From an uncultured Candidatus Poseidoniales archaeon (lineage in GTDB: Archaea; Thermoplasmatota; Poseidoniia; Poseidoniales; Thalassarchaeaceae), in assembly GCA_964013425.1 (NCBI GenBank), contig CAXGWC010000003.1, positions 50-64,049 of the forward strand: DNA of 64,000 nucleotides, written 5' to 3'. This document shows positions 16,499-61,543 of the stretch, piece after piece. The notes beneath the pieces were generated by a model. It saw only the letters and a list, made by a program, of their open reading frames with translations, searched no databases and was not told the origin of the DNA. Every line of letters begins with the position of its first letter. Positions within the stretch are counted from its first letter, which is position 1. A program made the translations under genes and the position numbers.

Positions 16499-16573
16499 TG
16501 GAGCCACTGGGGAGAATTGAACTCCCGACCTTCCCATTACCAATGGGATGCTATACCCCTAAGCCACAGTGGC
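16499..16573 (-). tRNA. tRNA-Thr (anticodon GGU), 75 nt, CCA encoded
   Basis: Hand-folded cloverleaf. Acceptor GCCACTG/CAGTGGC, anticodon stem TCCCA/TGGGA with loop TTGGTAA, T arm GGGAG-TTCAATT-CTCCC, discriminator U, then CCA. Confidence 0.9.
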
Positions 16574-16665
16574 GCTGAGTACGGGAATGGCCAGCTGCCT
16601 TTGGGTGTTACTATTAGAGGACTATCGATTAGCTCAAGACTGTAGTGGGTGTCCGACACTACATA

Positions 16666-16751
16666 GCCGAGATCGCATAGCCTGGTATTGCGCATGACTG
16701 GAAATCATGTGGGTTCATCCCTCCGGAGTTCAAATCTCCGTCTCGGCGCCA
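16666..16751 (+). tRNA. tRNA-Ser (anticodon GGA), 86 nt, class II with long variable arm, CCA encoded
   Basis: Acceptor GCCGAGA/TCTCGGC, anticodon stem CATGA/TCATG with loop CTGGAAA, 14-nt variable arm TGGGTTCATCCCTC, T arm CGGAG-TTCAAAT-CTCCG, discriminator G, then CCA. Confidence 0.9.
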
Positions 16752-40849: not shown

Positions 40850-41323
40850 ATGGAATGGGTCAGGGTTTCGATAGGGGAAGAGAAAAGTACCGATCCTCCA
40901 ATGCCCGCGCTTACAGGATCACACAATGGCTTGGACTCTGATGCCTCGACATCACACCGAAAATTCTTTTCAGATATTCCTCATATGACAGAAGTGATTG
41001 ATAATCATGAAAGATCCACAAAAAAAGTATTGATTCCAGGAAATGACTCATTGGGCGGCTATGACTCGATCAAATTATTCGAGGAGCGAATAACCGCAAT
41101 TGGTGCTGATTCTCTGGGGGATGGATTAGAGATTCCTCTATCTAAAACTGTCAGAGAAGAGGTGCTTCTTCAAAGGGCGACTACTGAATCAGGGCAGTTA
41201 GTCAGGTTAGTTGCACCAGAAAAATTTGGAGGCAGGATAGAGTCATTCATGCTGCCAAATGGAACTACCTTGAATGAGGCCTACTGGGATGGAGATAGAT
41301 TGAAGATAACCTTCAATTACTAA
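40850..41323 (+). CDS. Hypothetical protein (157 aa)
   Basis: ATG-initiated ORF with ordinary composition and no motif. Its stop overlaps the stop of the convergent giant gene (CTAA). Confidence 0.45.
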   Translation: MEWVRVSIGEEKSTDPPMPALTGSHNGLDSDASTSHRKFFSDIPHMTEVIDNHERSTKKVLIPGNDSLGGYDSIKLFEERITAIGADSLGDGLEIPLSKTVREEVLLQRATTESGQLVRLVAPEKFGGRIESFMLPNGTTLNEAYWDGDRLKITFNY

Positions 41324-44300
41324 TCTTCGATTATTTTTCCTTTGGACCTTGATGGAACGTCCTCTAATTGATCGATTTCTTGTAATACCGAGTTGAGAGC
41401 CATTTGCGCGCTTTCCCTGTGTTGGTTACCCAGAACGTGACTTGAGTACCTCGCTTCTTCGAATATCCTATCCAGAGATAGTAAAGCCTGTTCGCTTATT
41501 GGAAGTGCACTTCTGATTGCCATTTCGAATTCTCTTACGGTTTCGAAATCTCTTCTGAGGAATCCCCTGCTCATTAGTATCTTGCAAAGTCCTTCATAGC
41601 AATTGAATATCGCTTCCCTAACTTCGTCTCCAGCGGCTAGAAGTTCTGCAGTGTAGCTAAAGACACCAGCTAACTCATCAATAGCGGCCTTCTTTCTGTT
41701 TCTTATGGTTACTACCAGAGCTGAAACTCCGATCATAAATGCCACCAGAAGAACTGAAATTATTGCGGGCCTCAATAGAGAGTCGGAAGCTTCTGCCTGA
41801 TAGTTTATGCTGACTTCACTAAACTGAGCAAGTTGAGTGGCGTTGACCGGGTCAATAATATCCGAGTCAGAGCTAAACTCAATTTTCAACTCGCCCCAAA
41901 AATCCCTATCCCAGAATGAGTGGTCATCATGGAATGATTCGAACTGATAGTCAAAAATTCCATTCACATCAGTCATCCCAACGACAGTAAAAAGAGTATC
42001 CGTATCATTGGTTAATCTGGCAGTAATTGAGACTCCTTCGACAGGAGGTGCTCGATTATCATCAGAAGCAGTTACGTTGATTTTTCCAGAAATCTTAGAT
42101 TGTCCTCTCTCGATAAATATTCCATCGGGAATGAATACAAAGTCGACACTAACTAGAATCTGTAAGTCGAATTCAACTGATGCCCCATTAAGGAATCTCT
42201 CGGCATCTGGTTCTACATCTATAGTGAAGATAGAATTACCAGGAGGCATGTATGTCTTTGCATTGGAAGTGATGAGGAACTGTCCTGTGGCTTGGTCCCA
42301 TGAAATAATTGCATTAGGCTCAAGAGAACCCTCCCAAAGGAGCGACATCTCCATCTCTTCCATTGTATTTCCGTCTCCTCCAATTTCTAGTACTCTACCT
42401 CTGACCCTGATTGGCCTAGTTTCGTCACTTCTGACTACCTCATCAGAGATGAGGAGTATTTCCACATTGATATCCGCTCTTGAGAAAACAGTAGTATTTG
42501 TCGAGTCGGATAGATATAGTTCCTCTCCGTAGAAATGGACCGAAACTAGGTGATCTCCGCGAGATATCGAATATCCCAGTTCGTGCGTGAATGAGAAAGT
42601 CCCATCAACCCCAGTAGTCACCACTAGTATCTCAATGCCATCCAAAAGGAATGAGACTTCCCTATTCTCTAATCCCGGGGTACCGGGGGTGTCAGAATCA
42701 TATAGCCTTCCAGAGAAGTTCCACGAACCGCCCCTTGTTGCTACGCTGTTCTCGACATTCAAGGTAATAGTAGTGTGATATGCAATTGTGAGATTTGTTT
42801 CGACTGAGGTCTGCCTGTAGTAGCCTTGGTCGGGAGATATTACAGTTACTGGGTGGACCCCCACATCAAGGAATTCTGAAACAACCCAAGAAAGATGCCA
42901 ACTACCATCTTCTTCGGTCACTGTGGTCCCTATCAATATGCCATCAACAAATATCTGTAGTGAGTGGTTGGAGAGCCAACCATCGGGAAGATTATCCCTC
43001 ACATCACCCCTTAGATTCAGTACATCTCCAACCGCGACTGGGGTTGGATTTTCCACAGTCAGGGTTGTTGGAGAGAACACAGTGAAGATTGTTGTTGAGT
43101 TTGAGCCAAGAATGAATTCCTCACCCTGGAATAATAACATGACCTCCCTTGGTCCCAGAGGCATATCGGAGGGAACGGGGAAAAATAGACTGAATGAGCC
43201 GTTTCCATCTACACTAAGTGATGTCAGCATTTGACCATTCATGTATGCGTCGAGGGTCCTATTTGGAAGAGGCCTTCCGGCTCCATCGGTCAAAATTCCT
43301 TCAATCAGTAACAGTTCATTTCTATCTATTTCTCCCTGAGGAGTAGTTAGGACCACCTGTGAAGTTTGCGTTACATTGAATGGAGAGGTAGTAATTGAAG
43401 ATAGGTAATACTCTGGATTCAGCGAGTCTCCTTGCCCCATCGGATCTACCCATGTAAAACCACCTAGGAACTCAATACTGAATGTATGCTGACCATAGTC
43501 CATGTCAAGTGGAAGATCATATGTGATTTGCCATGCCCCAGATGTAGAGTTTGAAACGTCAATATACTGTGGACCTACATCAATTCCATCGATGTGAAGA
43601 TGGACCACTCCACCCTTCGGAGAGCCGTCCTCTACTAAAGGCAATCCGCGCTCATCTAAGAGTGTGCCACTGAATACCACTCGCTCCCCGGCTACGGCAG
43701 AGCCAGAGATGTTTGACACCTCTATCACAGTTGGAGCTAGAATGATTATCCTAGTCCATGTTTGGTCTCCTGATAAGCCAGTAGTTCCATTGATCCCGTC
43801 AAAAACTGCCGTCACAGTCATCGGCCCTGGATCCCTATTTGGATCGGTTGACAGATTCGTGTTGATCAGACCATTTGAATCTGTAAATCCTGACCAAGTC
43901 TCGAGCCCATCCACTAGGATCTTGACCTCCACATTAGCGACATTCTCTCCAGCATTGTCCATTATAGAAATATTGAGATTTGTGGGGTCGCCTCTGATGG
44001 TTCTTGCATCGGGGTCCAAATCGGTTGGATCAATGATAGAAATCATTGAGAAGCCCCTACTATCGAAGGTTCCATTACTTGAGCTTGAGCTGTAGTAGTT
44101 CACAGTAGGAGTGTAAGTTGCTGAGATATTGTGGGCCCCTCTAGGGAATGTCATGTCCAAGAAAATCCTGGCTGACCAACTACCATCAGGATCCACAGCT
44201 CCCCCAGAAACAGTGAATCCAGTAGAAACATCGTCGATTAAGAAGGTCAGACTTGGTGAGAGTGGATTTCCTGATCTATCAACAATACCGCTTCCGTTAC

Positions 44301-47300
44301 TGGACGTAAGATTTCCAGATACATCCAGGAAATCACCAGCAGTCGGGTTAGCGGTGATGGGATTAAATGATATTGAGGTCGGAGATCTGACGATAATCGT
44401 GTTGATGTAGGTGAACGAATTATGCAGAGTCTCAGTTCCATTCGATCCATTGAACACGAGCATGACTGAGATCGCCCCCAGAGGATGAGAGTGCGGGACA
44501 TCGAATGAAAAATTTACGTAACCACCAGAATTGGAAGAAATCTCAGATGTCAGCCAGGTATCATGGAATTTGGCGGATACGTTCATCCCGACGATTTCTC
44601 TGTCATTGTTGGATGACTCTGCGAGCTTAGCCCCAAAGGAAACTGAGGACCCTCGGTCCACTATTGTGTTTATCAGTGGAATCCGATCAATGAATTGAAC
44701 AACCCCTCTTACCAGAATCGAATCAGAACCTGTTCCTGTTAAGTAAAACGGACTACTCCCATTTTCAACACTAACTACGACTGTCTTGAGTCCGTTTGAA
44801 ACCCCGTCTCCCAATGGATCGGTCGGTACAGAAACTGAAAATGTCCCATTGGGGGAAGTCGCAAAACCGGTTACTAGCTTCTCATTAGGATCATCTAGGA
44901 AGAAAATCTCTATTGAGACTGGTCCACTAACTGTCCTATTGATGTCGAAGGAATCCATAACTTTACCTGTAACTAAGAATGACTGACCTGCAGTTACTTC
45001 GGGGAGAGGGGAGTTATCAATCCGGACGTTGCTTAAGACCTGAACTGTCAGGTTCATGTAGCTCTCGTTGGCAAGCCATCTGCCTGCATCTTGAGTTTCA
45101 AGTGAGTCGGTTAAGTCATCTGGAGCTAATATGAGTACGTCATAATAGCCAGGAGGAGCATCGCTTGGGATCGTTGACTGGAATTCAACAACACCATCAT
45201 TTCCAGTGACAGAGGTATTCATTAGTTGCTGAAGAGAACCTCCCCAATCGAAGTATATTTCCACAGTGGCGTTGGACAGCCTCTCGTTACTCTCGAGATC
45301 CCTAACTGTCGCTGAAGCGGACAAATTTTCTCCTGCGACCACTATTGCACTAGTATTCGCAGATTGGACATCGAACATTGTCTGTATCCCTATATCGAGG
45401 GAGTTTTCCGTAGCAGGATCGAAGAAGTAGGGTATTCCGCCAGGTGAGTTCTTTTCGAAGTCTAAGACCAGAATCGCCTGATAAACTCCAGAGCCAATCC
45501 CGCTAGGCATTGAGAATGATATGTTGTACTCTCCAGTGGTAGTATCTAACCACTCAGATCCCAATGTGTACCTATCTGGGGGAAGGGGGTTGCCATCTGG
45601 TCCAGCAGGTAGGCTTGATGGGACATCCAAGAAGAGGGAGACTGAGGTGTTGTTACCTAACACTGAGGAATTTAGATCGGAATCGATTACTGATCCTGAG
45701 ATCCATGTAGTGTTGCCCATTGGTACCCATTCGGTACCAAGATTGAAAATCGGTGAAGCCCTACCTTGTATCCTGACATCGTCAGTTGTTTGGTTAGGAC
45801 CAACCCAAGTGGAACCGTTGTAGCTCAGTACCCACGGATAGTCACCTGCAGGAGTTGAGAGCGATGGAGACCAAGAGGGTACTATTTTGGGAACATCTGG
45901 GTCGGAGATATTCCAAACTTCGGTGTCATTGACCGAAAGGGAGAAGAGGCCTGGGAAGGTAGTGATTTCTGCTCCAGTGTGATCGGACAGAGAGACTAAA
46001 ATGTCTGATGTGGTTCCTTTTGCGGCTGGAATCATTGTGTAATTGAATACGATGTAGCTCTTTATGCCATGTTGGTCAACTACCGTGGTTTCATCCTTTG
46101 CGAAAAGCTGATCGGCCAGATATTGATACCTAATTTCAACAAGTCCTGCGGGAATAGGGACATCAGAATCTAGGAAAGTCCAATTTACGGCGAATTGTCC
46201 AGGATTAGAGAGCCAGTCACTATCGTTCAGATACCAGGAATTGAGGGTTTGGAAAGGAGCATTAGTCCCAGATCTCCTCATTTGTAATGTCAGGGTCCCA
46301 TTCAGAGACTCTGGTATCTCAGATTTGCTGAGAGCGGTGCCATTGAGATAAATTCTATTATTAATCTCTAGTATTGTATTGTTCAATCCCTGACCTTCCA
46401 GTGAAATGGTTAGGTTTGGAGCCTGAGTGAGATTCAGATTGATTGTTTCTGAGTACGGCCTGATGTGGAAAACAGGACCTGATGCATTGTTCAGATCGAA
46501 CTGATGCCAACCTGTGTAATCAAGTGTGGCCGGAATAAGCCCTTCTTGCTCGCTTTCATTGATAGACACTGAGAACTCGAAATATCCCCCCGGTCCGATA
46601 CTGGATATCAGACTAACTGGGCCATCTTGTGAGGTAGTATAGTTCATCAGTATCTGCATACTATCAATTGATGAAATATCGTTGTAAGGGACATTCTCAA
46701 GAGAAACTGATCCAGTAATGGTGGTATTGACACCTATTCCTATTTTTGGCTCTGTGAGTGGTTGAGGCTCACTTAAGGATAGTGTAATATCATCGGTAAC
46801 GTTTACGTTCCATCCCGAGAAAATACCTTGGGTGCCCACATAATCAAGTGTCTTAGTCATTATGACCAATGAGGAATTGCCTGGATTAACTGCTTCATTG
46901 GGCATTCCCGTGATGTTGAATGAGCCATTGGAGTCAGTTACAGCCGTGCCTACCAGATGCTGGGAAACTGCCGCCAAGCCTGGAATTTGATTGGTCATAT
47001 TTGATTCGACGAGATACATATCAACTCCTACTCCTGCGACGGACGTCTGATTATCTGTGAACCTTAGAGTGCCGTTCATCCATATCGACTGGCCAGATAG
47101 GTCTCTGTCCAACCACAGTGGGCCCCAAGACTCGTCGGTTACCTCAACTAGTGACATTGCCGGACAAGCCTCGAATGGAATCCATCCCAAATCTGCATTT
47201 CCAAGATTTTGATTGGTTTGTAAGTGAACCTCTACCCACGAAGTAAAGTCTTTTCCATAAACCTCGAAAGCTTCACCGTTCCAATAACCTCCGGAGAATC

Positions 47301-50289
47301 CTGTTACCTTCCTAACAGGTATATCTGCAGTTCTTAGCATGACGGCAAAGAGCGAAGTGAATTGGTCACAGCTTCCCTCAAATGAATTATTGAGAATCCA
47401 ATATGCCATATCCGATTCTTCTTCTAAACCAGAAGGAACACTTGTTCCATTGTTATTTCTCAGAAATGTAATGGTATCATTACCTTCTGATATGAAGTCA
47501 GCTATGGCAGAAACTTTATCCCAAGCCGATAAAGCTCCGGAGTCATTGATTACAGATTGTGTTATTCCAGAGACGAGCTCATTCATATTGCCCCTTGAGG
47601 TGAAGAACGGGGGAAGATCAGTGGCATAATCAGTTCCCGTAAACACGGTAGAGTTGTCCCTAATCGCCTGAGTGATATTTACTTGTGGAGTGGTGATAAA
47701 CATTGTATCAATTGAAGAACCATCTACAATTATATCCCTTGTGAAATTAGAAAAATTCAACCCTGCTGTTGGATCAGTCCAGCCTGTGAAATTTACAGTA
47801 TTGTGAGGCAGGATAAGCTCCTCTCCGATATCAGCCACTCCCGCACCTCTGTAACTAATCTCCCAGCCCATTAGGGTCGAGTTATCCCAGAATTGCTGGT
47901 CTGAGACCCCTTGTGTTGTAGAGAATCCGGGTACCATTTCAGTATTGCCTACAAGAGAGGTATTCACGCCCCATGATATCCCAGTGTATTGATCATAGGT
48001 GTGCCATCTCCAGTAGATTTTATTCTCAGGATTTAGTATCGATGATTGATTTGTGGCATAGAGGTATATGGAATTAGGAGAAATATCGTCCGACGGGTCC
48101 CATGGATTGTTCGGAGAGTCTTCACATAGGCCGTCCCAGTAGTCCGAGGTACACTCCTGTCCGTCTGGGATGCCCCCTCCGTCAGTATCTGGATCTCTCC
48201 AGTCAGTTCCAGTTGAGTTTTCGATTGTATCTGGGATTCCATCTCCGTCTGTGTCGACAGGATTTCTATCATCATTGGGGTTATCTTGAGGATTTGTACC
48301 GTCAATATATTCCTGGAAATCTGTCACTCCTCCATTATCGGTATCTGACAAATTCCAAAGGGTGAAGTAAGTATCGTTAGTGAAGTTCCCCCCCATGCCA
48401 GGAAAGGATACTATGCAACCTGTTGTATTTTCGAAGTAATTATTCAACCCATCACCATCGGAGTCTAGTAGGTTTTCACACGGGTCAAGAGGGTCAGTAC
48501 CATTCAGAATTTCATCTAAATCTTCTACTCCATCCGAATCGGTATCCACAAGATTAGGATTTGTGGGGAATCCCCATGTTGACAGATACTCCTCCCAATC
48601 GGCGAGTCCGTCTCCATCTGAATCGGAGTAGTCATCGTCACAAATTGGATCATTAACTGCCCCTACAGTAGCATCCCAACACCACGAGAAGTTGGTGAAG
48701 AGGACTGTGGATGTGTTGGCCGGCAGGTCTACGTTAACGCTTCTTAGTACGTCTGAATCTATGCTTTCATATCGAAACTCCAACAGAGTCCCATTCGAAA
48801 GAACATAATATGCCATAGGGGCATCTGTCTGTCTCCAATCTAAAGGTGATTGATCTAATTGAGAAGTCGAGTTGAGAGTTAAGGAAGATGTGACTGAGTC
48901 CCAGCCAATTATTTGGAGTGTAAGTTCCTCTTCTGATAAGCAGGGATCAGAGTTGTGGAAAGGTAGAATTTCATCACCATCAGATACCCCCCCACCATCT
49001 GTGTCGAAAACGTTCCAGAGTGTGCATGTCATGTTCTCCTCCCAATTCTGAATACCATCGCCATCAAAGTCTCCTGCATCCTCTATCCTAGTTGGATCGG
49101 TTTCATTCATATCCACTATGCCATTGCCATTGAGATCCTCCTCCCCATCATCGAATTGATCCCCGTCTGTATTGTTGTTTCTAGGGTCACTAGCTTGTGG
49201 TGGATCTCCGTACTGGCCATTGACCTCGACTCCATCTTCGATGCCATCGGAATCAGTATCAACAGAGGTAGGGTCTGTCAGGAGAATTAATGCCTCATAC
49301 GAGTCATTTAGACCGTCTCCGTCTGTATCGTTTGATTGCGGGTCAGTGGATGTAATACCATCTACCTCGGCAGTTAGAAATTGACATCCCCCTGGGCCCA
49401 GTGACAATACTGGATTACAAGGCGATTCGGTTGCAGTCATGGCTAGTGGGCCGGGTCTGAAATACTGCGTAGGAGGAGTCGTAGAGCCATTTCTGGTCCC
49501 CCATGCCGGATTGACATATTCCTTAAGGTTGATCAGTCCATCTCCATCCGGATCTCCAAATGTACCATCCATATTACTGTTAGATGTCGGATCTAATCCA
49601 TTAGCGGCTTCCCATCCGTCGGGCATTCCATCCCCGTCGGTGTCCCATCCATCTGGGTCCTCATCGGCGATACCATCACCGTCATCATCATCACTAGAGC
49701 AGTTGGCATCACCATCGCCATCTCCGTCGAAGTTATCCACCATTCCATCCTTATCATCGTCAAATGTGTTGAAGCAAATATTTCCTCTTGGATCTTCATC
49801 TGCACCATCAGAATTTAGACCTTGAATGAGTTGCATGGCACTTTCTTCATCCCAATCCCTGACTGGAACGGTTCCGTTCCACCATACCCCGTTATCTAGC
49901 ACGTTTGGAGTAGATGTCAAATCCCAACCAGAGGGCATAGAATATTGATACTCATTGAGATTGGTAAATGCATCCCCATCTGGATCTCCGGTAGATCCGT
50001 TGTCCCCGTTCTGAGATAGAGGATTTAGTCCATACTGCCACTCCCACCCGTCTGGAAGTCCGTCATTATCTGAGTCCCAGTCTTGAGGTTGTGTATTGAT
50101 GTAGAATTCGAGACCGTATGATAGTCCGTCTCCATCCTGATCTGAAGACGCTAAAGCCTCCCAAGCACTGAACTCCAACGCTGAGTACGAAGAAAGTAGC
50201 ATTAAGAGCGAGAATGTAATTGCTGAGCGGTGTTTTCTGTTCGACTTCGTGTCTTTTGAAAGATTCACAATAGAGCCCACGCTACTCAC
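41320..50289 (-). CDS. Giant type-I membrane protein (2,989 aa): signal/anchor, TSP3 Ca-binding repeat region, transglutaminase-like core, at least 11 prealbumin/Ig-like modules, TM helix, cytoplasmic DUF4129-like domain
   Basis: Uninterrupted 9-kb ORF; see the sub-features below. The start is GTG 50289, or more likely GTG 50280, which lies 5 nt downstream of GAGGTGA (50286-50292). The N-terminus is KHRSAITFSLLMLLSSYSALEFSAWEALA. Confidence 0.9.
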   Translation of the reverse strand: MSSVGSIVNLSKDTKSNRKHRSAITFSLLMLLSSYSALEFSAWEALASSDQDGDGLSYGLEFYINTQPQDWDSDNDGLPDGWEWQYGLNPLSQNGDNGSTGDPDGDAFTNLNEYQYSMPSGWDLTSTPNVLDNGVWWNGTVPVRDWDEESAMQLIQGLNSDGADEDPRGNICFNTFDDDKDGMVDNFDGDGDGDANCSSDDDDGDGIADEDPDGWDTDGDGMPDGWEAANGLDPTSNSNMDGTFGDPDGDGLINLKEYVNPAWGTRNGSTTPPTQYFRPGPLAMTATESPCNPVLSLGPGGCQFLTAEVDGITSTDPQSNDTDGDGLNDSYEALILLTDPTSVDTDSDGIEDGVEVNGQYGDPPQASDPRNNNTDGDQFDDGEEDLNGNGIVDMNETDPTRIEDAGDFDGDGIQNWEENMTCTLWNVFDTDGGGVSDGDEILPFHNSDPCLSEEELTLQIIGWDSVTSSLTLNSTSQLDQSPLDWRQTDAPMAYYVLSNGTLLEFRYESIDSDVLRSVNVDLPANTSTVLFTNFSWCWDATVGAVNDPICDDDYSDSDGDGLADWEEYLSTWGFPTNPNLVDTDSDGVEDLDEILNGTDPLDPCENLLDSDGDGLNNYFENTTGCIVSFPGMGGNFTNDTYFTLWNLSDTDNGGVTDFQEYIDGTNPQDNPNDDRNPVDTDGDGIPDTIENSTGTDWRDPDTDGGGIPDGQECTSDYWDGLCEDSPNNPWDPSDDISPNSIYLYATNQSSILNPENKIYWRWHTYDQYTGISWGVNTSLVGNTEMVPGFSTTQGVSDQQFWDNSTLMGWEISYRGAGVADIGEELILPHNTVNFTGWTDPTAGLNFSNFTRDIIVDGSSIDTMFITTPQVNITQAIRDNSTVFTGTDYATDLPPFFTSRGNMNELVSGITQSVINDSGALSAWDKVSAIADFISEGNDTITFLRNNNGTSVPSGLEEESDMAYWILNNSFEGSCDQFTSLFAVMLRTADIPVRKVTGFSGGYWNGEAFEVYGKDFTSWVEVHLQTNQNLGNADLGWIPFEACPAMSLVEVTDESWGPLWLDRDLSGQSIWMNGTLRFTDNQTSVAGVGVDMYLVESNMTNQIPGLAAVSQHLVGTAVTDSNGSFNITGMPNEAVNPGNSSLVIMTKTLDYVGTQGIFSGWNVNVTDDITLSLSEPQPLTEPKIGIGVNTTITGSVSLENVPYNDISSIDSMQILMNYTTSQDGPVSLISSIGPGGYFEFSVSINESEQEGLIPATLDYTGWHQFDLNNASGPVFHIRPYSETINLNLTQAPNLTISLEGQGLNNTILEINNRIYLNGTALSKSEIPESLNGTLTLQMRRSGTNAPFQTLNSWYLNDSDWLSNPGQFAVNWTFLDSDVPIPAGLVEIRYQYLADQLFAKDETTVVDQHGIKSYIVFNYTMIPAAKGTTSDILVSLSDHTGAEITTFPGLFSLSVNDTEVWNISDPDVPKIVPSWSPSLSTPAGDYPWVLSYNGSTWVGPNQTTDDVRIQGRASPIFNLGTEWVPMGNTTWISGSVIDSDLNSSVLGNNTSVSLFLDVPSSLPAGPDGNPLPPDRYTLGSEWLDTTTGEYNISFSMPSGIGSGVYQAILVLDFEKNSPGGIPYFFDPATENSLDIGIQTMFDVQSANTSAIVVAGENLSASATVRDLESNERLSNATVEIYFDWGGSLQQLMNTSVTGNDGVVEFQSTIPSDAPPGYYDVLILAPDDLTDSLETQDAGRWLANESYMNLTVQVLSNVRIDNSPLPEVTAGQSFLVTGKVMDSFDINRTVSGPVSIEIFFLDDPNEKLVTGFATSPNGTFSVSVPTDPLGDGVSNGLKTVVVSVENGSSPFYLTGTGSDSILVRGVVQFIDRIPLINTIVDRGSSVSFGAKLAESSNNDREIVGMNVSAKFHDTWLTSEISSNSGGYVNFSFDVPHSHPLGAISVMLVFNGSNGTETLHNSFTYINTIIVRSPTSISFNPITANPTAGDFLDVSGNLTSSNGSGIVDRSGNPLSPSLTFLIDDVSTGFTVSGGAVDPDGSWSARIFLDMTFPRGAHNISATYTPTVNYYSSSSSNGTFDSRGFSMISIIDPTDLDPDARTIRGDPTNLNISIMDNAGENVANVEVKILVDGLETWSGFTDSNGLINTNLSTDPNRDPGPMTVTAVFDGINGTTGLSGDQTWTRIIILAPTVIEVSNISGSAVAGERVVFSGTLLDERGLPLVEDGSPKGGVVHLHIDGIDVGPQYIDVSNSTSGAWQITYDLPLDMDYGQHTFSIEFLGGFTWVDPMGQGDSLNPEYYLSSITTSPFNVTQTSQVVLTTPQGEIDRNELLLIEGILTDGAGRPLPNRTLDAYMNGQMLTSLSVDGNGSFSLFFPVPSDMPLGPREVMLLFQGEEFILGSNSTTIFTVFSPTTLTVENPTPVAVGDVLNLRGDVRDNLPDGWLSNHSLQIFVDGILIGTTVTEEDGSWHLSWVVSEFLDVGVHPVTVISPDQGYYRQTSVETNLTIAYHTTITLNVENSVATRGGSWNFSGRLYDSDTPGTPGLENREVSFLLDGIEILVVTTGVDGTFSFTHELGYSISRGDHLVSVHFYGEELYLSDSTNTTVFSRADINVEILLISDEVVRSDETRPIRVRGRVLEIGGDGNTMEEMEMSLLWEGSLEPNAIISWDQATGQFLITSNAKTYMPPGNSIFTIDVEPDAERFLNGASVEFDLQILVSVDFVFIPDGIFIERGQSKISGKINVTASDDNRAPPVEGVSITARLTNDTDTLFTVVGMTDVNGIFDYQFESFHDDHSFWDRDFWGELKIEFSSDSDIIDPVNATQLAQFSEVSINYQAEASDSLLRPAIISVLLVAFMIGVSALVVTIRNRKKAAIDELAGVFSYTAELLAAGDEVREAIFNCYEGLCKILMSRGFLRRDFETVREFEMAIRSALPISEQALLSLDRIFEEARYSSHVLGNQHRESAQMALNSVLQEIDQLEDVPSRSKGKIIED
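41323..41775 (-). other. C-terminal TM helix (41704-41775) plus a 127-aa cytoplasmic DUF4129-like domain (41323-41703)
   Basis: The TM helix is LLRPAIISVLLVAFMIGVSALVVTI, followed by RNRKK (positive-inside rule). The tail has ETVREFEMAIRSALPISEQALLSLDRIFEEARYSSHVL, which matches the T.RE....L...L..L...FE.ARYS pattern typical of DUF4129. Confidence 0.6.
41785..47142 (-). repeat. Array of prealbumin/Ig-like (CarboxypepD_reg-like) modules (residues about 1050-2835)
   Basis: At least 11 recurrences of the T/S-x-x-x-G-x-(F/W) strand motif: TDSNGSFNITG, TGNDGVVEF, TSPNGTFSVSV, SNSGGYVNFSF, VDPDGSWSARI, TDSNGLINTNL, STSGAWQITY, VDGNGSFSLFF, TEEDGSWHLSW, TGVDGTFSFTH, TDVNGIFDYQF. Confidence 0.6.
47155..48069 (-). 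other. Transglutaminase-like (papain-fold) domain of the 2,989-aa protein (residues about 741-1045)
   Basis: The N-terminal flank YWRWHTYDQYTGISW fits the 'Y..Y.G..W' region. The core EGSCDQFTSLFAVMLRTADIPVRKVTGFSGG...DFTSWVEVHL...LGWIPFEACP aligns by eye to the G.C..F..LF.A.LR..GIPAR.V.G...HAWVEVY...GW...DPT pattern. Confidence 0.65.
48085..50145 (-). repeat. TSP3 (thrombospondin type-3) Ca-binding repeat region of the 2,989-aa protein (residues about 49-735)
   Basis: Many DxDxDGxxDxxE loops: DSDNDGLPDGWE, DPDGDAFTNLNEY, DTDGDGMPDGWE, DPDGDGLINLKEY, DTDGDGLNDSYE, DTDSDGIEDGVE, DFDGDGIQNWEE, DSDGDGLADWEEY, DTDSDGVEDLDE, DSDGDGLNNYFE, DTDGDGIPDTIE. Confidence 0.8.
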
Positions 50290-50358
50290 CTCTTACCTAG
50301 GGCGGAAAGTAGGGCTCTTAAGAGGAATGGAGCGTCGTTCGGACGTTGCCTCAAACTA

Positions 50359-53322
50359 TTAGACGAGTTCAATGTCGTCATCGTCGTAGACATCTTCCTC
50401 ATCTTCTTCTTCCTCTTCCAGAGAAACAACCGGCGCGGGTATGTCATCAACTTCCTCTGAGTCATCTTCTGAGTCATCGGAAATAGCGTTCAAATAAGCC
50501 ATGTGAGATTTCCATCTTCGACGATTCAATGCTGATTGGGTGCCGGCAATAAGAAGCATAATGCCGATGATACCAACTACATATGTTGAAAGTCTTGGAT
50601 GAGTGAACTCATTCACTAGACGTTCTATCAGGGAGTCGATGCCAACGGTCATTACAACCGTTGCCCTAGCAGTAGAATCATCAGGCCAGCTTTGGTCGGT
50701 ATCGAAGGGCGTTGCACTAACCATTATCCTAGAGGAGTCGCCATTGTTGGAAGACACCGGGACAGTGACCTCTAGGACGAAGGTTACCTCATCAAAGGCC
50801 TCCAGGACAACTAGAACTGATCCGGAAGGACCGTCGATCTCTACACTCCATGAAGAGGAGTCAGATTCGGCCTCGAGAAGAATCGTAAGCGGACTATTTC
50901 CAAGATTCTTCACTTTCATCTGAATTTCTACTGTGTCTCCTGGAGATAATAGCCTATTTGGAGAAACCTGTACGATTTCTAGTGTTGGCTCATCAGAGTC
51001 TATTTCGAACACCATCGGGAGATCAAAATATCTTGGGTCTTCGTCAGGGGTGTCTTCTACAACCCTTAGATATACGGTATGATTCCCGAACTCGACCTGG
51101 CTAGTGAGGGTGATGGTCACAAAAACTTCGGTATCATCACCGGGTGCTAGAGAGACTCTTGGAACAGCATTCCCAGAGTCATCCTCTATTCTGAACTGCC
51201 ATTGCCCATATGCCGCATTCCTGTCTTTGTTCTCTTCTAATGAGGCTGGATTCTGGATCCTCCACCATGTAGCGGACTCCCCCGATGTCATTGTATTTGT
51301 GATTTTAGCCCTCAGGGAGACTTCAGCATTTCCGGAGCCAGGGGAACAGAGAGATACTGTAATGTGCCCAAGTGGGGAGCCATCGCAGTCATAGGAAACC
51401 TCCGCCCTGATTCCGAATGTCCTCTGAATTGTGAATTCGATTGTAGAGGACAGGTTACTCTGGCCGGTGCTGACTACTTCTAATTCGACAGTACCTATAT
51501 CTGGGTCCAGTCTATCGGAGGAAGGTTTGATGAGGATTCTGAGGGTTTGTGTCTCATGTCTGTCGAGGAGAGCGGTGTGAAAAGTCCCATCACCATCGTC
51601 CTCTAGAATTCTCTCGCCCGTGTCATTGTCATAAACCTGAATTATGGCTTTAGCCCTTTGAAGAACGTCAATCTTGAACTCATCTGCATCAAAACCAGTA
51701 TTGAAAATCTCCATCAAGAAGGGAGTAAATTGGTCATAGTCAACATAGCTGTTTGCAGAAGCATCGAAGTCGTCTGGCCTTGAAGAATTAGCTACAGCAA
51801 CCTCATGATCTTCGGACCATATCGAAACTTGTGGAGGTTGGAAAACATCCATCTTCTTCAGGTCCAGTTGTAATGTGTCTTGATGAACTACCTGCAACAC
51901 ACCATCTACCTCTGCCTCAGCTACAGCCCTGATATCAATCGAGCCTGGAGCACCAGTGAGATCTTCAGGGGCGGTCAAGGTAAGGATTGGATTGAGGATG
52001 TCACCTCCAGAGTTTAACGTGTATCCTCCAGGAGAGTCGAACTCTATTAGCCACGAACTAGGGAAATTTGTCAATACTTCTAGCTCTACATCCATTGATT
52101 TGGTCGAGTCCCCCCTGTGTACCATCTGGAGGGAGATAGGGGTTGTCTGCTCGGGGGCTATGTATTCGGTTGACCTATCTTGCCGGTGATTTAGTGCAAC
52201 CCCCCACTGCTCCATATTTACAGGCTCATGCTCTACTATCACGCTGTTTCCCTGAATATCAGATACTTCGAGCTCGACTGAGTATTCGCCTGAAGGAATC
52301 CCACTAGGGTATGACCATAGATACTCTCCGAAAATACCTTGGCTTGTGTCCTCAATATCCTCATCATCCTCGTCAATAACATGATCAATTCTGTATATGC
52401 CATTGGGGTCCCTCATCAACAATCTTACCGAGTCGACATCATATCTCCCGAAGCTACTTTTAACATCGAATGAGAATTGCATTACCCTCTCCGAGAGGAC
52501 ATCATTAGGATACCAATCCAACTCGGCCCCTTCTGCTAGCTCCGCTCCCTCTCTTTGTAGCAGAACCAAGCTGTTAGCGATCGCATTGGCTTCAATTTCC
52601 AGAGTACTGAATCTTTCATCACCATCAATTTCGTTCCATGCGACTTCTGCTTCACAGCTCGATGAACCTCCCCATGGACTTCCACCTCCACTATCGCATC
52701 CTGACATGTCAGCATCGATTATTAATTCCAAGCGTTCATCCTTGTCTATTGTGAAAGTCTCATCACTACCAATATCGATTTCAAATGTCTCATGATCGAA
52801 GCTACAACTTTGAGTCAGTCCGGGATTGCATGCTTCTGAAGACCAAGATGCCGATCCAACCTGAGATCCAGATGCTTTTAGTGTGAGAGTCCAGTCAACA
52901 CTAGCGGTATCGGGACCTGTAGATCTCAGAAATATCCCGATTGGCAGATAATACGAGCCAGAGCCCGAGCCGTGATTGGGCCTACCTGCTATCTCGAGAC
53001 TGGAGAGCATCGGACTGGTCCTGAATTCGATGCTACTACTTAATGCGCTCATGGACTCCTGTCCCCCGGACTCGGGAACTTGTGTGGTGATGTATCCATC
53101 TCCCCCTGCAGATGAATTCTGAGATGCGATATACATCGTATAGAGGTTCATCTGAACATCGCTATTAGAATTGAAATTTGTGGTTTCGTTTAGCTCACTA
53201 TTGGAAACTGTAGAGGCTCCATATGGAATGAGAAGGACCAAGCAAAGAACCAGTGCCATAGCTCTGCTCTTACGAACGTAGTTCGCTGTACTTCTCCCTT
53301 GCACGATTAAGCGCCCACACAA
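50359..53322 (-). CDS. Large type-I surface protein (987 aa): signal, Cys-containing N-domain, NEW3/CARDB-like Ig modules, TM helix, acidic cytoplasmic tail
   Basis: Start is TTG 53322 (RKSRAMALVLCLVLLIPYGAST signal) or ATG 53259. It is all-beta-like, with repeated modules such as LSPGDTVEIQMKVKNLGNSPLTILLE. The C-terminus is YVVGIIGIMLLIAGTQSAL (TM) + NRRRWK...EEEEEDEEDVYDDDDIELV. It lies 69 nt upstream of the 2,989-aa gene on the same strand. Confidence 0.85.
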   Translation of the reverse strand: MCGRLIVQGRSTANYVRKSRAMALVLCLVLLIPYGASTVSNSELNETTNFNSNSDVQMNLYTMYIASQNSSAGGDGYITTQVPESGGQESMSALSSSIEFRTSPMLSSLEIAGRPNHGSGSGSYYLPIGIFLRSTGPDTASVDWTLTLKASGSQVGSASWSSEACNPGLTQSCSFDHETFEIDIGSDETFTIDKDERLELIIDADMSGCDSGGGSPWGGSSSCEAEVAWNEIDGDERFSTLEIEANAIANSLVLLQREGAELAEGAELDWYPNDVLSERVMQFSFDVKSSFGRYDVDSVRLLMRDPNGIYRIDHVIDEDDEDIEDTSQGIFGEYLWSYPSGIPSGEYSVELEVSDIQGNSVIVEHEPVNMEQWGVALNHRQDRSTEYIAPEQTTPISLQMVHRGDSTKSMDVELEVLTNFPSSWLIEFDSPGGYTLNSGGDILNPILTLTAPEDLTGAPGSIDIRAVAEAEVDGVLQVVHQDTLQLDLKKMDVFQPPQVSIWSEDHEVAVANSSRPDDFDASANSYVDYDQFTPFLMEIFNTGFDADEFKIDVLQRAKAIIQVYDNDTGERILEDDGDGTFHTALLDRHETQTLRILIKPSSDRLDPDIGTVELEVVSTGQSNLSSTIEFTIQRTFGIRAEVSYDCDGSPLGHITVSLCSPGSGNAEVSLRAKITNTMTSGESATWWRIQNPASLEENKDRNAAYGQWQFRIEDDSGNAVPRVSLAPGDDTEVFVTITLTSQVEFGNHTVYLRVVEDTPDEDPRYFDLPMVFEIDSDEPTLEIVQVSPNRLLSPGDTVEIQMKVKNLGNSPLTILLEAESDSSSWSVEIDGPSGSVLVVLEAFDEVTFVLEVTVPVSSNNGDSSRIMVSATPFDTDQSWPDDSTARATVVMTVGIDSLIERLVNEFTHPRLSTYVVGIIGIMLLIAGTQSALNRRRWKSHMAYLNAISDDSEDDSEEVDDIPAPVVSLEEEEEDEEDVYDDDDIELV

Positions 53323-53445: not shown

Positions 53446-53531
53446 GCAGAGGTACCCGAGCTGGTCAAAGGGGCCGGACTTAAGCTCCGGTGCATAGTGC
53501 TTCGCAGGTTCAAATCCTGCCCTCTGCACCA
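53446..53531 (+). tRNA. tRNA-Leu (anticodon UAA), 86 nt, class II, CCA encoded
   Basis: Acceptor GCAGAGG/CCTCTGC, anticodon stem CCGGA/TCCGG with loop CTTAAGC, 13-nt variable arm, T arm GCAGG-TTCAAAT-CCTGC, discriminator A, then CCA. Its 3' end abuts the folB stop on the opposite strand. Confidence 0.9.
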
Positions 53532-54798: not shown

Positions 54799-55857
54799 AT
54801 GGCGACGCGACTACCGACCGTTGACTCATCTCAAATTACTACAAATTCCTGTTCTGGAACTCCTGTCGAGAGGGCTAAAGATATTGTACCAAGGGAGAGG
54901 AAAAGACTTCCGAATTGGTTCAAGACCAGTCTTCCGATTGGAAAGTCCCAGTCCGTTTACAATAGTACCATGGCTAGTGTCAAGGATAACGACCTGAACA
55001 CTGTTTGCGTTGAGGCAAGATGCCCCAATATCCATGATTGCTGGGGAAGGGGAACTGCAACTTTCATGATTGCCGGGGATGTTTGTACAAGGGGTTGTAG
55101 ATTCTGTGCCGTCAATACTGCGAAAACCCCTCCTCCATTGAACCCTGATGAGCCAGAAGATCTTGCGACTGCGATTGAGAGCATGGGAATAAATCATGCA
55201 GTTATTACCGTTGTCAACAGAGACGACCTGCCCGATGGGGGGGCGAATCACTACAGGGAATGTATAATGGCAGTTCACGATAGATGTCCAGATGTAGGAA
55301 TTGAGTTACTTTGCTCCGACCTCGACGGTAACTTAGAATCTCTAAAAACACTGCTGAATGGATTGCCTATTCGTGTTTTTGCTCACAATGTTGAGTGTGT
55401 TCCAAGGCTAGACAAGATTGTTAGAGACAGAAGAGCCTCATTTTCACAATCTTTGGAAATTCTCTCTGAGGCCAAGAATTTGCGTCCAGATCTGAAGACT
55501 AAGACCAGTATCATGGTGGGCATAGGAGAGACTGACTCTGAGGTGATTGAAGCGATGGAGATGATTAGATCCTCGGAAGTTGATATGATTACTCTAGGTC
55601 AGTATCTCCAACCTGGTGAGCGTCATTTGCCCGTCGATAGATTCCCTGAGCCATCTCAATTCGCTGATTGGGACAAGGAAGCTAGAGAGATGGGGTTCTC
55701 TGCCGTTGCCAGTGGCCCCCTAGTGAGGTCTAGCTATCGCGCTGGACTTCTTTGGGAGGAGGCCATGGGCTTGGAGCCAATAGTTACCAGAGAGTCAACT
55801 GGTTCAGCGGTTAGTCACCTTACGTTTTCACGGGCTGAAGGAGGCCAAAAGATATGA
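54799..55857 (+). CDS. lipA: Lipoyl synthase (radical SAM)
   Basis: Auxiliary-cluster motif CEARCPNIHDCW, radical-SAM motif CTRGCRFCAV, and a C-terminal RSSYRAG-type motif (VRSSYRAG). Confidence 0.9.
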   Translation: MATRLPTVDSSQITTNSCSGTPVERAKDIVPRERKRLPNWFKTSLPIGKSQSVYNSTMASVKDNDLNTVCVEARCPNIHDCWGRGTATFMIAGDVCTRGCRFCAVNTAKTPPPLNPDEPEDLATAIESMGINHAVITVVNRDDLPDGGANHYRECIMAVHDRCPDVGIELLCSDLDGNLESLKTLLNGLPIRVFAHNVECVPRLDKIVRDRRASFSQSLEILSEAKNLRPDLKTKTSIMVGIGETDSEVIEAMEMIRSSEVDMITLGQYLQPGERHLPVDRFPEPSQFADWDKEAREMGFSAVASGPLVRSSYRAGLLWEEAMGLEPIVTRESTGSAVSHLTFSRAEGGQKI

Positions 55858-55879
55858 GTGTTGAAAGGGTGTATGAACC

Positions 55880-57121
55880 ATGAGCGGGGGAAACGGGGCG
55901 GACCCACTTCACGTTCCCGATGCACCACATAGGCCAGGGGATGAAGCTGGTTTCGTTGAATGGCCATGGTCCCCAGGGGATTTGGAAAAGCCAAACATAG
56001 ATTGTGATGCTCCTGAAACTACCTCACTCGCAGAGGGGCTAGTGAGGGTTCTTGGCGATGATAATAAGGCCTCAGGGAATTGGGATCCAAAGCTCTCCGT
56101 AGAAGAGATGATATCGGGACTTGAGCATATGATGAGGCTTCGAATATTCGATGACAGAATGATGAAAATGCAGAGAACTGGTAAGCTCTCATTTTACATG
56201 CGATCTTACGGAGAGGAGGCGGTTGCTATTGCTCAGACAATGGCCCTTAAAGAACAAGACTGGCTATTCCCAACTTACAGACAGCCAGGTGCACAATTCG
56301 TCAGAGGAAGGGACATGATTAGTATGATTTGCCATTGCATTGGTAACGAAATGGATAATGTCAAAGGTAGACAAATGCCTGTTCACTATACTTACAGGGA
56401 CGGACGATTCATTTCTGTTTCAAGTCCTGTTGGGACACAGTTTAGCCAGGCCGTTGGAGTAGCTTTGGCTTCTGATTACAAGGGACTTGACGAAGTCACG
56501 ATTACATGGATTGGCGATGGCGCTAGTGCGGAGGGGGACTATCATTACGCGTTGAATTTTGCCAGTATCTTTCAAGCACCAGTGATACTGAACGTTGTTA
56601 ACAATCAATGGGCAATCTCCACACACAAAAATTTCGCAAGTAAAAATGGTAATTTTGCTGTCAGGGGACTGCCACATGGAATTCCCAGTATACGTGTTGA
56701 CGGGAATGATTTCTTGGCCCTTTATTCTGTTACTGCTTGGGCTAGAGAAAGAGCATCTGTAGGACTAGGGCCTACTCACATAGAAGTCTTGACATATCGC
56801 GCAGGAGCCCATAGCAGTAGCGATGATCCATCCAGATATAGGCCGTCCGATGTCCACTCACTTTGGCCTGGAGGGGATCCCATATATCGCCTTAGAGACC
56901 ATCTCAAAGAGATAGGAGTATGGTCAGACGAAGAACATCGAAAGCTATCCGAAAAAATAGACTCAGAGGTGATGGCGGCATACAAAGAAGCTGTCAAATT
57001 TGGAGATTTAGCTAATGGCCCGTATCCATCATCTGACGCGATTTTCACAGAAGTTTATGAGAACCCTCCCTGGCATCTAAAAGAACAGTGGGATGAAATG
57101 AAGAAATGGAGGGATTCATGA
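55880..57121 (+). CDS. 2-oxoacid dehydrogenase E1 component, alpha subunit (TPP-dependent, branched-chain/pyruvate type)
   Basis: TPP-binding motif GDGASAEGDYHYALNFASIFQAPVILNVVNNQWAIST, followed by YRAGAHSSSDDPSRYR. Confidence 0.85.
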   Translation: MSGGNGADPLHVPDAPHRPGDEAGFVEWPWSPGDLEKPNIDCDAPETTSLAEGLVRVLGDDNKASGNWDPKLSVEEMISGLEHMMRLRIFDDRMMKMQRTGKLSFYMRSYGEEAVAIAQTMALKEQDWLFPTYRQPGAQFVRGRDMISMICHCIGNEMDNVKGRQMPVHYTYRDGRFISVSSPVGTQFSQAVGVALASDYKGLDEVTITWIGDGASAEGDYHYALNFASIFQAPVILNVVNNQWAISTHKNFASKNGNFAVRGLPHGIPSIRVDGNDFLALYSVTAWARERASVGLGPTHIEVLTYRAGAHSSSDDPSRYRPSDVHSLWPGGDPIYRLRDHLKEIGVWSDEEHRKLSEKIDSEVMAAYKEAVKFGDLANGPYPSSDAIFTEVYENPPWHLKEQWDEMKKWRDS

Positions 57122-58131
57122 TGCCTAACATGAATATGGTAGAATCAGTAAATAATGCCTTGGACACAATGCTCTCAAAGGATAACGATGTCATAATGTT
57201 CGGTGAAGATATTGGATACTTTGGCGGTGTTTTCAGAACCTGTGATGGCCTGCAAGAGAAGCACGGAAAACATAGGGTATTTGATTCTCCACTTTCAGAG
57301 GGAGGAATTGCGGCTACAGCTTTCGGGATGGGGATTAATGGACTCAGGCCTGTTGTTGAGATTCAATTCGCTGACTATATATTCCCTGCTTACGATCAGA
57401 TAGTTAACGAGATGGCCAAGGTCAGACATCGTTCTGGGGGAGAGTTCTGGTGTCCTGTAACCATAAGGACCCCTGCAGGAGGTGGAATCAGAGGTGGCCA
57501 CCATCACTCACAATCACCTGAGGCACAGTTTACTCACACGCCAGGACTCAAAGTTGTTTATTGCTCAACCCCTTACAATGCCAAGGGGCTGTTGATAAGC
57601 GCCATAGAGGATAATGATCCAGTTATTTTCTTCGAGCCCAAGAGATGCTACAGAGGACCTTTCTATGGGGATCCACACAATGTCCCGACTTGGGCCGGGC
57701 ATCCAGAGGCAGAGGTTCCTGAATCCCATTATTCGATTCCCCTGGGCGAGGCTCGATTGGCTATGGAGGGTGACAGGTGTACGGTAATCTCTTGGGGTGC
57801 GATGGTTCATGTTTGCGAGCAGGCAATCAGGGATAGTGGGATATCTTGCGATCTAATTGATCTCCAAACTCTGGTCCCATGGGATAGAGAAGCTGTAGTC
57901 TCATCGATTCAAAAGACTGGTAGGTGCGTAATCGTTCATGAGGCTCCAAAAACTAGTGGATTCGGAGCTGAAATGGCTGCTTCTATCCAGGAGCGGTGCT
58001 TTTGGAGTCTTGAATCCCCCATAGAGAGGGTGACTGGATGGGACACTCCTTTTCCCCATACTACTGAATGGGATTACATGCCCGGTCCAGGCAGAGTGGC
58101 CGCGGCGATAGCGAAAACACAGGAGGATTAA
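57118..58131 (+). CDS. 2-oxoacid dehydrogenase E1 component, beta subunit
   Basis: MMPNMNMVESVNNALDTML...GEDIGYFGGVFRTCDGLQEKHG..RVFDSPLSE. Its ATG overlaps the E1alpha stop (ATGA), and GGAGGGA lies upstream. Confidence 0.9.
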   Translation: MMPNMNMVESVNNALDTMLSKDNDVIMFGEDIGYFGGVFRTCDGLQEKHGKHRVFDSPLSEGGIAATAFGMGINGLRPVVEIQFADYIFPAYDQIVNEMAKVRHRSGGEFWCPVTIRTPAGGGIRGGHHHSQSPEAQFTHTPGLKVVYCSTPYNAKGLLISAIEDNDPVIFFEPKRCYRGPFYGDPHNVPTWAGHPEAEVPESHYSIPLGEARLAMEGDRCTVISWGAMVHVCEQAIRDSGISCDLIDLQTLVPWDREAVVSSIQKTGRCVIVHEAPKTSGFGAEMAASIQERCFWSLESPIERVTGWDTPFPHTTEWDYMPGPGRVAAAIAKTQED

Positions 58132-58132
58132 C

Positions 58133-59419: not shown

Positions 59420-59425
59420 GGTGAC

Positions 59426-60865: not shown

Positions 60866-60874
60866 GGTGGATTC

Positions 60875-61543
60875 TTGTCGGAGATAAAAATACTCCATCT
60901 CGGAGTGGAGGAGTATTCTACAGTTTTTGAGAAGATGAAAAAATTACAAGAAAGAAGAATCGAGGATGAAATAACGGATACTCTGATTTTCGTTATTCAT
61001 CCAGAGGTTGTCACCTTGGGTCCAAAGGCAGTAAGGGATGGAGTGGAGATTGAAGATTACCAGATATTTGAGACAGATAGAGGAGGGGGGGCAACATGGC
61101 ATGGGCCTGGACAACTAGTTGTCTATCCAATAATTAAATGGGAAGGAGAGTTCCAAAGTGTCAGAGCAGTGATATCCCTATTGGAGGATTGGGCAATATC
61201 GGCTTTCGAAGTATGTGGCATTGAGTCCTACAAAGATAAAGCGATGCAAGGAGTATGGGTCGATGGACACAAAATTTGTTCCATTGGGCTTTCTTTCTTT
61301 AAGTGGGTGAGTAGGCATGGTATGTCAATTAATGTGAATACACCGGGTTCCAGACTGGAGAGGGTCTCTGGATGTGGCATGCAGGAAGGAACCCATACTT
61401 GTCTACACAAGCTCGGATATTGTTTCGATAAGGAAGGGGATAAGATTGATGTCAAAAGAATTGAGGATGCATTTTTTGAGACATGTGAGAAAATCCTAGG
61501 CAGGGTTCCTAGTTATTGTACGAGCGAGGACATGAGGACTTAG
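60875..61543 (+). CDS. lipB: Lipoyl(octanoyl) transferase
   Basis: Motifs: HPEVVTLG, RGGGATWHGPGQLVVYPI, KICSIG. A TTG start is supported by GAGGTGG (60864-60870) 4 nt upstream and by the conserved N-terminal IKILHLGVEEY. Confidence 0.75.
   Translation: MSEIKILHLGVEEYSTVFEKMKKLQERRIEDEITDTLIFVIHPEVVTLGPKAVRDGVEIEDYQIFETDRGGGATWHGPGQLVVYPIIKWEGEFQSVRAVISLLEDWAISAFEVCGIESYKDKAMQGVWVDGHKICSIGLSFFKWVSRHGMSINVNTPGSRLERVSGCGMQEGTHTCLHKLGYCFDKEGDKIDVKRIEDAFFETCEKILGRVPSYCTSEDMRT

Follow-up and report, generated by a model that had tools for sequence, protein, structure and literature searches.

Archaea of Marine Group II (MGII; Poseidoniales) are uncultured, and a 64,000-nt stretch of contig CAXGWC010000003.1 from an uncultured Candidatus Poseidoniales archaeon, hereafter the window, raises the question of what a surface protein of almost 3,000 residues with a transglutaminase-like module does in such a cell: does it act on other proteins as an enzyme, or does it serve as a structure? 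The protein (hereafter the giant) is encoded by the second of two minus-strand genes that lie head to tail, in the order described by a first-pass annotation made from the sequence; the open reading frames (ORFs) span 50359..53322 (987 aa, the partner) and 41320..50289 (2,989 aa, the giant) and are 69 nt apart in the ORF listing. The first GTG of the giant falls within the GAGGTGA motif at 50286-50292, read directly from the sequence, and the likely start is the GTG at 50280, located 5 nt past this Shine-Dalgarno motif as the first-pass annotation had described. The resulting gene (41320..50280) encodes 2,986 aa plus stop, the same length as the database protein P0001, which is 100% identical to the giant, and residue numbers of the giant follow this 2,986-aa numbering throughout unless stated. 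For the partner, the ATG at 53259 is most likely the start, giving a protein of 966 aa (50359..53259), also the length of several partner orthologues, with the signal-like N-terminus MALVLCLVLLIPYGAS. All features of the two proteins described below lie on the minus strand.

A scan with one genome per species revealed 496 genome stretches that encode a relative of the giant. The best 80 of these 496 are all from MGII/Poseidoniales and comprise metagenome-assembled genomes, single-cell genomes and long-read assemblies; named relatives belong to Candidatus Thalassarchaeum and Thalassarchaeaceae (Marine Group II). Full-length, collinear orthologues of 2,935-3,017 aa (40-100% identity, 99-100% coverage) make up more than 120 clusters among the matches listed. 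Where a locus extended far enough upstream (59 loci), the partner gene, whose orthologues are 31-98% identical, always preceded the giant on the same strand (59 of 59), and in 56 the two genes were direct neighbours. The pair forms a conserved unit that runs through the Marine Group II lineage. That the long ORF could instead be an assembly chimera or a frameshift fusion, a concern raised by the first-pass annotation, is next to inconceivable: collinear ORFs in the same length range that cover 99-100% of the query recur in hundreds of independent assemblies, including single-cell and long-read ones, and nothing speaks for an artefact beyond the divergent relative P0248, which is split into 2,701 and 249 aa with its neighbours kept.

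A TgpA-type fold without the catalytic histidine

Residues 725-1060 of the giant (47101..48108) form a TgpA-like ectodomain module, consisting of a beta-sandwich and a transglutaminase core. The predicted transglutaminase segment has clear profile support, with Pfam Transglut_core (PF01841) matching residues 924-1041 (in the numbering of the 2,989-aa ORF) at 43.8 bits against a cut-off of 23, which assigns it to the transglutaminase-like superfamily of papain-like fold. An AlphaFold2 (AF2) model of residues 725-1075 (predicted local distance difference test score, pLDDT, 89) displayed both the beta-sandwich and the core, and Foldseek returned 6g49, the periplasmic domain of TgpA, as its best PDB match (E 2.9e-13, 310 columns, target-normalised TM-score 0.61), followed by 3isr. 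The query segment is misaligned at its last few residues in alignment A1, which touches only the low-confidence C-terminal end of the first AF2 model. The extracytoplasmic combination of beta-sandwich and transglutaminase module that defines the TgpA fold is present in the giant. In vitro, the Pseudomonas aeruginosa protein TgpA (PA2873) is active as a transglutaminase, and it is critical for Pseudomonas viability (PMC3507681).

Sequence alignment to 6g49 placed GSCDQF of the giant, with Cys971 (47368-47370), opposite the catalytic Cys, and DFTSW opposite DAHAW, with Thr1013 (47242-47244) standing for the catalytic His. Across 32 giant orthologues of 40-84% identity, the catalytic-His column holds T, S, R, H or Q, no conserved His column exists anywhere else in the transglutaminase module, and the Asp position (1037) is occupied by E, D, N or Q; Cys971 and Cys1039 (47164-47166) are invariant. 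The giant does not carry the Cys-His-Asp triad of an active enzyme. Relatives outside MGII, collected by an exhaustive search and including TgpA-like proteins of 650-800 aa as well as multi-core giants, keep 'AH.W', barring three degenerate copies in multi-core proteins, and mostly have 'D/E-P-T-P' where that stretch aligned; '[DENQ]-x-C-P' was found in the MGII branch alone among the relatives aligned. Because the non-MGII relatives keep the His, its loss in the MGII branch, together with the gain of Cys1039, reads as a derived trait of the family. In some cores of the multi-core proteins, the Cys position is taken by Ser, Ala or Gly.

From residue 720 to residue 2893, the giant contains no cysteine other than Cys971 and Cys1039, and all 14 of its ectodomain cysteines are invariant or nearly so and fall into neighbour pairs. 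Since Cys971 and Cys1039 are both invariant and every other ectodomain Cys is paired with a neighbour, the two probably form a disulfide. The loss of the catalytic His, the variable Asp position and the probable engagement of Cys971 in a disulfide together indicate that the transglutaminase-fold module is most likely non-catalytic, a binding or structural pseudoenzyme and not a cross-linker or protease. Covalent cross-linking, one of the two activities that the first-pass annotation had considered, is disfavoured by the same columns and by the 'AH.W' retained outside MGII.

Like TgpA, the giant continues from its beta-sandwich and transglutaminase core to a transmembrane (TM) helix and a cytoplasmic DUF4129 domain, and with both the module fold and the C-terminal TM/DUF4129 unit in place it is best classed in the TgpA-type family, as a derived and expanded member. 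It differs from TgpA in being archaeal and roughly fourfold larger, in having a signal peptide and ~680 aa of TSP3-type repeats in place of the polytopic TgpA_N domain, and in the ~1,760 aa of immunoglobulin (Ig)-like modules inserted before the TM helix; in addition, the catalytic His of the giant is lost and its Asp is variable, while the in vitro active TgpA has an intact triad (PMC3507681). No Pfam match to TgpA_N (DUF3488) was obtained in the giant, the N-terminus of which offers only one weakly hydrophobic segment with A-x-A. TgpA_N, the catalytic triad and, at the loci examined, the MoxR/DUF58 linkage are the TgpA-type features that it lacks. MoxR and DUF58 genes do adjoin the two non-MGII relatives that could be placed on contigs, P0289 and P0265, in line with the usual neighbourhood named in the first-pass annotation. 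The MoxR and DUF58 proteins found beside non-MGII relatives, used as tblastn queries, gave no match to MoxR (AAA_3) or DUF58 in the window and 83 MGII loci (2.02 Mb in total, ~10 kb on each side), and the ORFs of the window of at least 120 aa contained no Pfam match to either family, so that their reported absence from the window stands.

Typical family members (TgpA_N, Transglut_core and DUF4129) measure 650-800 aa, as had been anticipated, but the expansion itself, for which the first-pass annotation knew of no described function, is not unique, as other TgpA-family giants of 2,800-3,140 aa also have Ig arrays between transglutaminase cores and TM plus DUF4129. The uncharacterised P0257 and P0289 (2,801-3,142 aa) resemble the giant in size and have arrays of CarboxypepD_reg/Big/MG type at this place, and the archaeal two-core protein P0265 (1,446 aa) likewise has Ig-like domains between its transglutaminase cores and a C-terminal TM plus DUF4129. 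Unlike the giant, all three have an N-terminal membrane domain of TgpA_N type or three to four N-terminal hydrophobic segments and two to four transglutaminase cores (four in P0257 and P0289) with the His intact, barring the three degenerate copies; P0257 and P0289 additionally carry HEAT repeats, and none of the three has TSP3 repeats or a 966-aa partner. Specific to MGII are the signal peptide with TSP3 head, the single His-less core with its extra Cys, and the 966-aa partner. The 3,142-aa form, in which four transglutaminase cores are combined with HEAT repeats, Ig arrays and DUF4129, is encoded at locus L084 (8001-23146), and the archaeal 1,446-aa two-core form at locus L085 (8001-16922); both are uncharacterised, come from other organisms and have MoxR (AAA_3) and DUF58 alongside.

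The same transglutaminase-like/MoxR/DUF58 linkage is shown by the bifidobacterial PFNA cluster (pkb2-fn3-MoxR-duf58-tgm; PMC8430577), in which, as in the MGII pair, a gene for an FN3/Ig-like membrane or secreted protein is linked to a transglutaminase-like gene. In contrast to PFNA, the locus of the pair has no kinase, MoxR ATPase or DUF58, and no sequence relationship of the partner to PFNA proteins was found. An 835-aa gene beside the non-MGII relative P0289 was considered as a relative of the partner and rejected (hhalign probability 0.1).

Head, stalk and tail of the giant, and its partner

The domain order that the first-pass annotation had laid out for the giant, namely signal, TSP3 region, transglutaminase-like core, Ig array, TM helix and DUF4129 tail, was recovered. 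Alignment of orthologue N-termini delimited a signal peptide (residues 1-45; 50146..50280) with a conserved A-x-A site directly before the first DQDGDG. It is followed by a region of calcium-type TSP3 repeats (residues 46-724; 48109..50145), in which 16 DxDxDG motifs compare with 0.41 +/- 0.64 in 2,000 shuffles of residues 45-725; the strict DxDxDGxxDxxE motif occurs 12 times in the giant and 0.11 times in shuffles. Motif counts and the orthologue alignment further revealed 12 invariant Cys forming six neighbour pairs in this region. The repeated TSP3 calcium-binding motif is thus present, with Pfam TSP3_bac just under its cut-off (24.6 bits, cut-off 25), and the motifs suggest that the region binds calcium. 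The Myxococcus adhesins CglD and MtsD share calcium-type TSP3 repeats with the giant (NCBIfam E 3e-23 and 6e-19), but with scores far under the family cut-offs (82 vs 400 and 68 vs 800 bits), so that only the repeat type is shared, and they have no transglutaminase module, Ig stalk, TM helix or DUF4129; the NCBIfam search returned nothing beyond this sub-threshold repeat similarity.

Between the transglutaminase module and the membrane lies a sequon-rich array of ~16 Ig-like or prealbumin-like beta-sandwich modules (residues 1062-2825; 41806..47097). An iterated hidden Markov model (HMM) detected 13 related modules of ~110 aa over residues 1062-2694, and the gaps fit about three more. In Pfam, Big_3_5 exceeded its cut-off in the giant (45.1 bits vs 35.5), and MG2, MG4, Big_1 and CarboxypepD_reg matched below threshold, the MG2 and MG4 matches being of generic Ig-like kind. 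The thioester motif C[GL]EQ was sought in the giant and is absent, which leaves it outside the alpha-2-macroglobulin/thioester proteins. The whole giant contains 93 N-X-S/T sequons compared to 37 expected, its orthologues have 77-89 compared to 34-42 expected, and 44 of the 93 sites are conserved, suggesting a heavily N-glycosylated stalk.

A hydropathy scan identified residues 2831-2862 (41695..41790) as the sole strong hydrophobic segment of the giant; this single TM helix is followed by RNRKK and a cytoplasmic DUF4129-like tail of 124 aa (residues 2863-2986; 41323..41694), the core of which (FLRRDFETVREFE) is invariant in the 32 orthologues. The predicted DUF4129 identity held for the family and narrowly missed in the giant itself, where Pfam DUF4129 scored 22.7 bits, ~2 bits under the cut-off of 24.8; among the orthologues listed, over half have the domain on record, the one from L002 at E <= 1e-5, and an HMM of the giant's tail detects the tails of other TgpA-family members. 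Column identity reached ~0.8 over residues 51-450 of the TSP3 region and 0.83 over residues 2901-2950 of the tail, the two most conserved parts of the protein, compared to ~0.5 in the stalk. PDB sequence searches with the TSP3 region, the Ig array, the DUF4129 tail and the partner profile gave nothing meaningful.

The partner comprises a signal peptide, ~6-7 beta-sandwich domains, one TM helix and an acidic cytoplasmic tail. Its AF2 model, built with 26 sequences (pLDDT 74), is all-beta over residues 38-872 with ~6-7 sandwiches and has a helix at 890-926, and Foldseek matched it only to generic Ig/MG/ASH multi-beta-sandwich arrays such as hydin-like and alpha-2-macroglobulin-like chains, which makes the earlier label of an Ig-module protein a fair one. 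In contrast to the giant, the partner shows no sequon enrichment (6 vs 6.8 expected). Its cytoplasmic tail (50362..50523), predicted by AF2 to be disordered, has 23 D/E among 54 aa and closes with a conserved Y-DDDD-IELV, in which D961, E964 and L965 are invariant across MGIIa and MGIIb and Y958, D960, I963 and V966 nearly invariant in a 12-sequence partner alignment. Elsewhere in the window, the minus strand at 9552-16436 encodes a second giant surface protein. This 2,294-aa protein begins with a signal peptide and has a C-terminal TM helix, and its short, acidic, Tyr-rich tail (EDDVYYDDDDYEYYEEEDEY) resembles that of the partner (EEDVYDDDDIELV). Judging from these sequences, the acidic tail may be a cytoplasmic docking or sorting motif shared by MGII surface proteins.

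The intergenic spacer between partner and giant measures 78 nt to the GTG at 50280 (50281..50358), includes the GAGGTGA at 50286-50292 and contains no run of five or more T. Across 75 related loci, the median spacer length was 76 nt, and a T run of this kind was present in 7 and absent from 68. The short spacer and the rarity of such runs make the co-transcription proposed by the first-pass annotation plausible, without proving it.

Candidate functions of the pair

Taken with moderate confidence, our preferred reading is that the pair builds a fibre, a scaffold or an adhesion structure on the cell surface, which would be non-catalytic, calcium-stabilised and glycosylated and have its conserved anchor in the cytoplasm. 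After cleavage of its signal peptide, the giant would be a type I membrane protein. Its distal head would consist of TSP3-type repeats that bind calcium and are stabilised by six conserved disulfide pairs, together with the TgpA-like pseudo-transglutaminase module, carried on a stalk of ~16 heavily N-glycosylated Ig-like modules; beyond the single TM helix, a highly conserved, helical DUF4129 domain would anchor or couple the fibre on the cytoplasmic side. The upstream gene, probably co-transcribed, would contribute a membrane-anchored string of beta-sandwiches with an acidic cytoplasmic tail, and giant and partner together would form a calcium-stabilised envelope fibre, scaffold or adhesion structure that works without the MoxR/DUF58 partners accompanying other TgpA-family members. 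A conserved head and tail joined by a looser stalk fit fixed interaction surfaces at both ends connected by a spacer, and the calcium-dependent attachment and 'cytoplasmic output' that the first-pass annotation had suggested for the giant are plausible as putative functions.

Several observations weigh against the fibre or scaffold reading. A dead enzyme would not usually keep its nucleophile Cys invariant, and the module may work by a non-canonical mechanism or be under redox control through Cys971 and Cys1039. MoxR and DUF58 could be encoded elsewhere in MGII genomes, the loci examined covering ~10 kb on each side. A physical association of giant and partner is suggested by gene order alone. 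Moreover, a head this conserved is more in keeping with a fixed ligand or with self-assembly than with binding to varied particles, and because of this conservation adhesin and scaffold are not separable.

That the giant is an active surface transglutaminase or cysteine protease, positioned by its TSP3 and Ig modules to cross-link or trim envelope or prey proteins, would fit the above-threshold Transglut_core match, the fold shared with TgpA, itself transglutaminase-active in vitro (PMC3507681), and the invariant nucleophile Cys971. However, with the His column relaxed to T/S/R/H/Q in 32 orthologues and no other conserved His in the module, with E/D/N/Q at the Asp position, with a His loss that appears derived because non-MGII relatives keep the residue, and with Cys971 matched by an invariant, family-specific Cys1039 while the other ectodomain cysteines are paired, which suggests a disulfide, we regard this activity as very unlikely. 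An equally low probability is given to the giant as a transmembrane sensor, in which a ligand or calcium at the head would lead, via the TM helix, to DUF4129 signalling in the cytoplasm. Such a role would suit the cytoplasmic tail, the most conserved segment with its invariant Arg/Glu-rich motifs, and the retention of the TM plus DUF4129 unit across the whole TgpA family, but DUF4129 has no known enzymatic or signalling activity, the neighbouring genes are housekeeping ones with no linked kinase, regulator or nucleotide-cyclase gene, and a ~1,760-aa stalk whose Ig modules are only loosely conserved would pass on conformational signals poorly.

Somewhat less remote, by analogy, yet still unlikely, is that the pair forms the main envelope lattice of MGII in the manner of an S-layer, with the Ig modules of the giant tiling the surface and the 966-aa protein acting as membrane stalk. 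The pair is near-universal, constant in length and syntenic across the order, and no MGII S-layer protein was found in the searchable literature; furthermore, archaeal S-layer glycoproteins and their two-gene operons often have strings of Ig-like domains, sequons, a C-terminal anchor and a paired membrane-anchored subunit, as does the pair. On the other hand, no homology of the pair to archaeal S-layer proteins was detected, described S-layer proteins are not known to have a TgpA-like module or a cytoplasmic domain that is conserved, and the other giant surface proteins of the window are equally plausible candidates. A bolder version, quite unlikely in our estimate and a little more so than the lattice as such, would make the pair the principal envelope or surface structure of MGII, with a TgpA-derived pseudoenzyme serving as the subunit of a calcium-dependent, glycosylated, membrane-spanning fibre or lattice; on the cytoplasmic side, its DUF4129 would dock the conserved acidic tails of partner surface proteins, for example the one ending in Y-DDDD-IELV in the 966-aa protein and its counterpart in the 2,294-aa giant encoded at 9552-16436.

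Surroundings of the pair and meaning for Marine Group II

The pair is embedded in housekeeping genes that are largely conserved in MGIIa and MGIIb. One flank comprises lipoyl synthase, 2-oxoacid dehydrogenase, a short-chain dehydrogenase, FolB and tRNA-Leu; the opposite flank comprises a small ORF, XPD, an RHH protein and glutamate dehydrogenase. Directly beside the pair, a plus-strand cluster at 54799-61543 encodes lipoyl synthase, the 2-oxoacid dehydrogenase subunits E1 alpha, E1 beta, E2 and E3, and lipoate-protein ligase; as far as in view, it occupies the same position in the MGIIa and MGIIb loci. A tRNA-Leu(TAA) at 53446-53531 (plus strand) lies between the partner start and the FolB-like gene, on the strand opposite to the pair. 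At the other end, a 157-aa ORF (40850-41323, plus strand) runs towards the giant and shares 4 nt with the end of that gene at its stop codon; it has no family match, and a small convergent ORF with marginal conservation (24% identity, E 7e-4) is found at the same place in other MGII loci.

Further away in the window, a third large surface protein of 1,898 aa (25110-30806, plus strand) combines FG-GAP, CARDB and NPCBM_assoc domains with a C-terminal TM helix and a tail that is long and charged. An unusual 712-aa fusion of a Ycf48/BNR-like beta-propeller (PSII_BNR) with an ABC-transporter permease (BPD_transp_1) is encoded at 32462-34600 (plus strand) and followed by an ABC ATPase gene. The window also contains tRNA-Thr(GGT) and tRNA-Ser(GGA) at 16499-16751. 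Its gene content is archaeal and includes an Rpb7-like subunit, a D-aminoacyl-tRNA deacylase of the archaeal type, RtcB and an XPD helicase.

We found no paper on the giant, its transglutaminase/DUF4129 nature or the gene pair, and no description of the MGII cell surface in the searchable literature. Marine Group II has been described as the most abundant planktonic archaea of ocean surface waters, and Rinke et al. mention that 'thrombospondin genes' are widespread in Poseidoniales, which they treat as hinting at adhesion (PMC6461757). Against this background, a single-length, order-wide and syntenic protein of ~3,000 aa together with its partner offers a tangible candidate for a core structure of the envelope or of attachment, and the pair could be used as a target for antibodies, proteomics or cryo-electron tomography in enrichments. 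For the TgpA/DUF4129 family, the MGII branch amounts to a natural experiment: fold, TM helix and DUF4129 tail were kept, while the catalytic His, the polytopic N-domain and the MoxR/DUF58 neighbours (at least within ~10 kb on either side) were lost. As the branch retains these parts without the His, the conserved role of the family may be one other than catalysis, and if DUF4129 does dock acidic tails, this would be the first function assigned to the domain.

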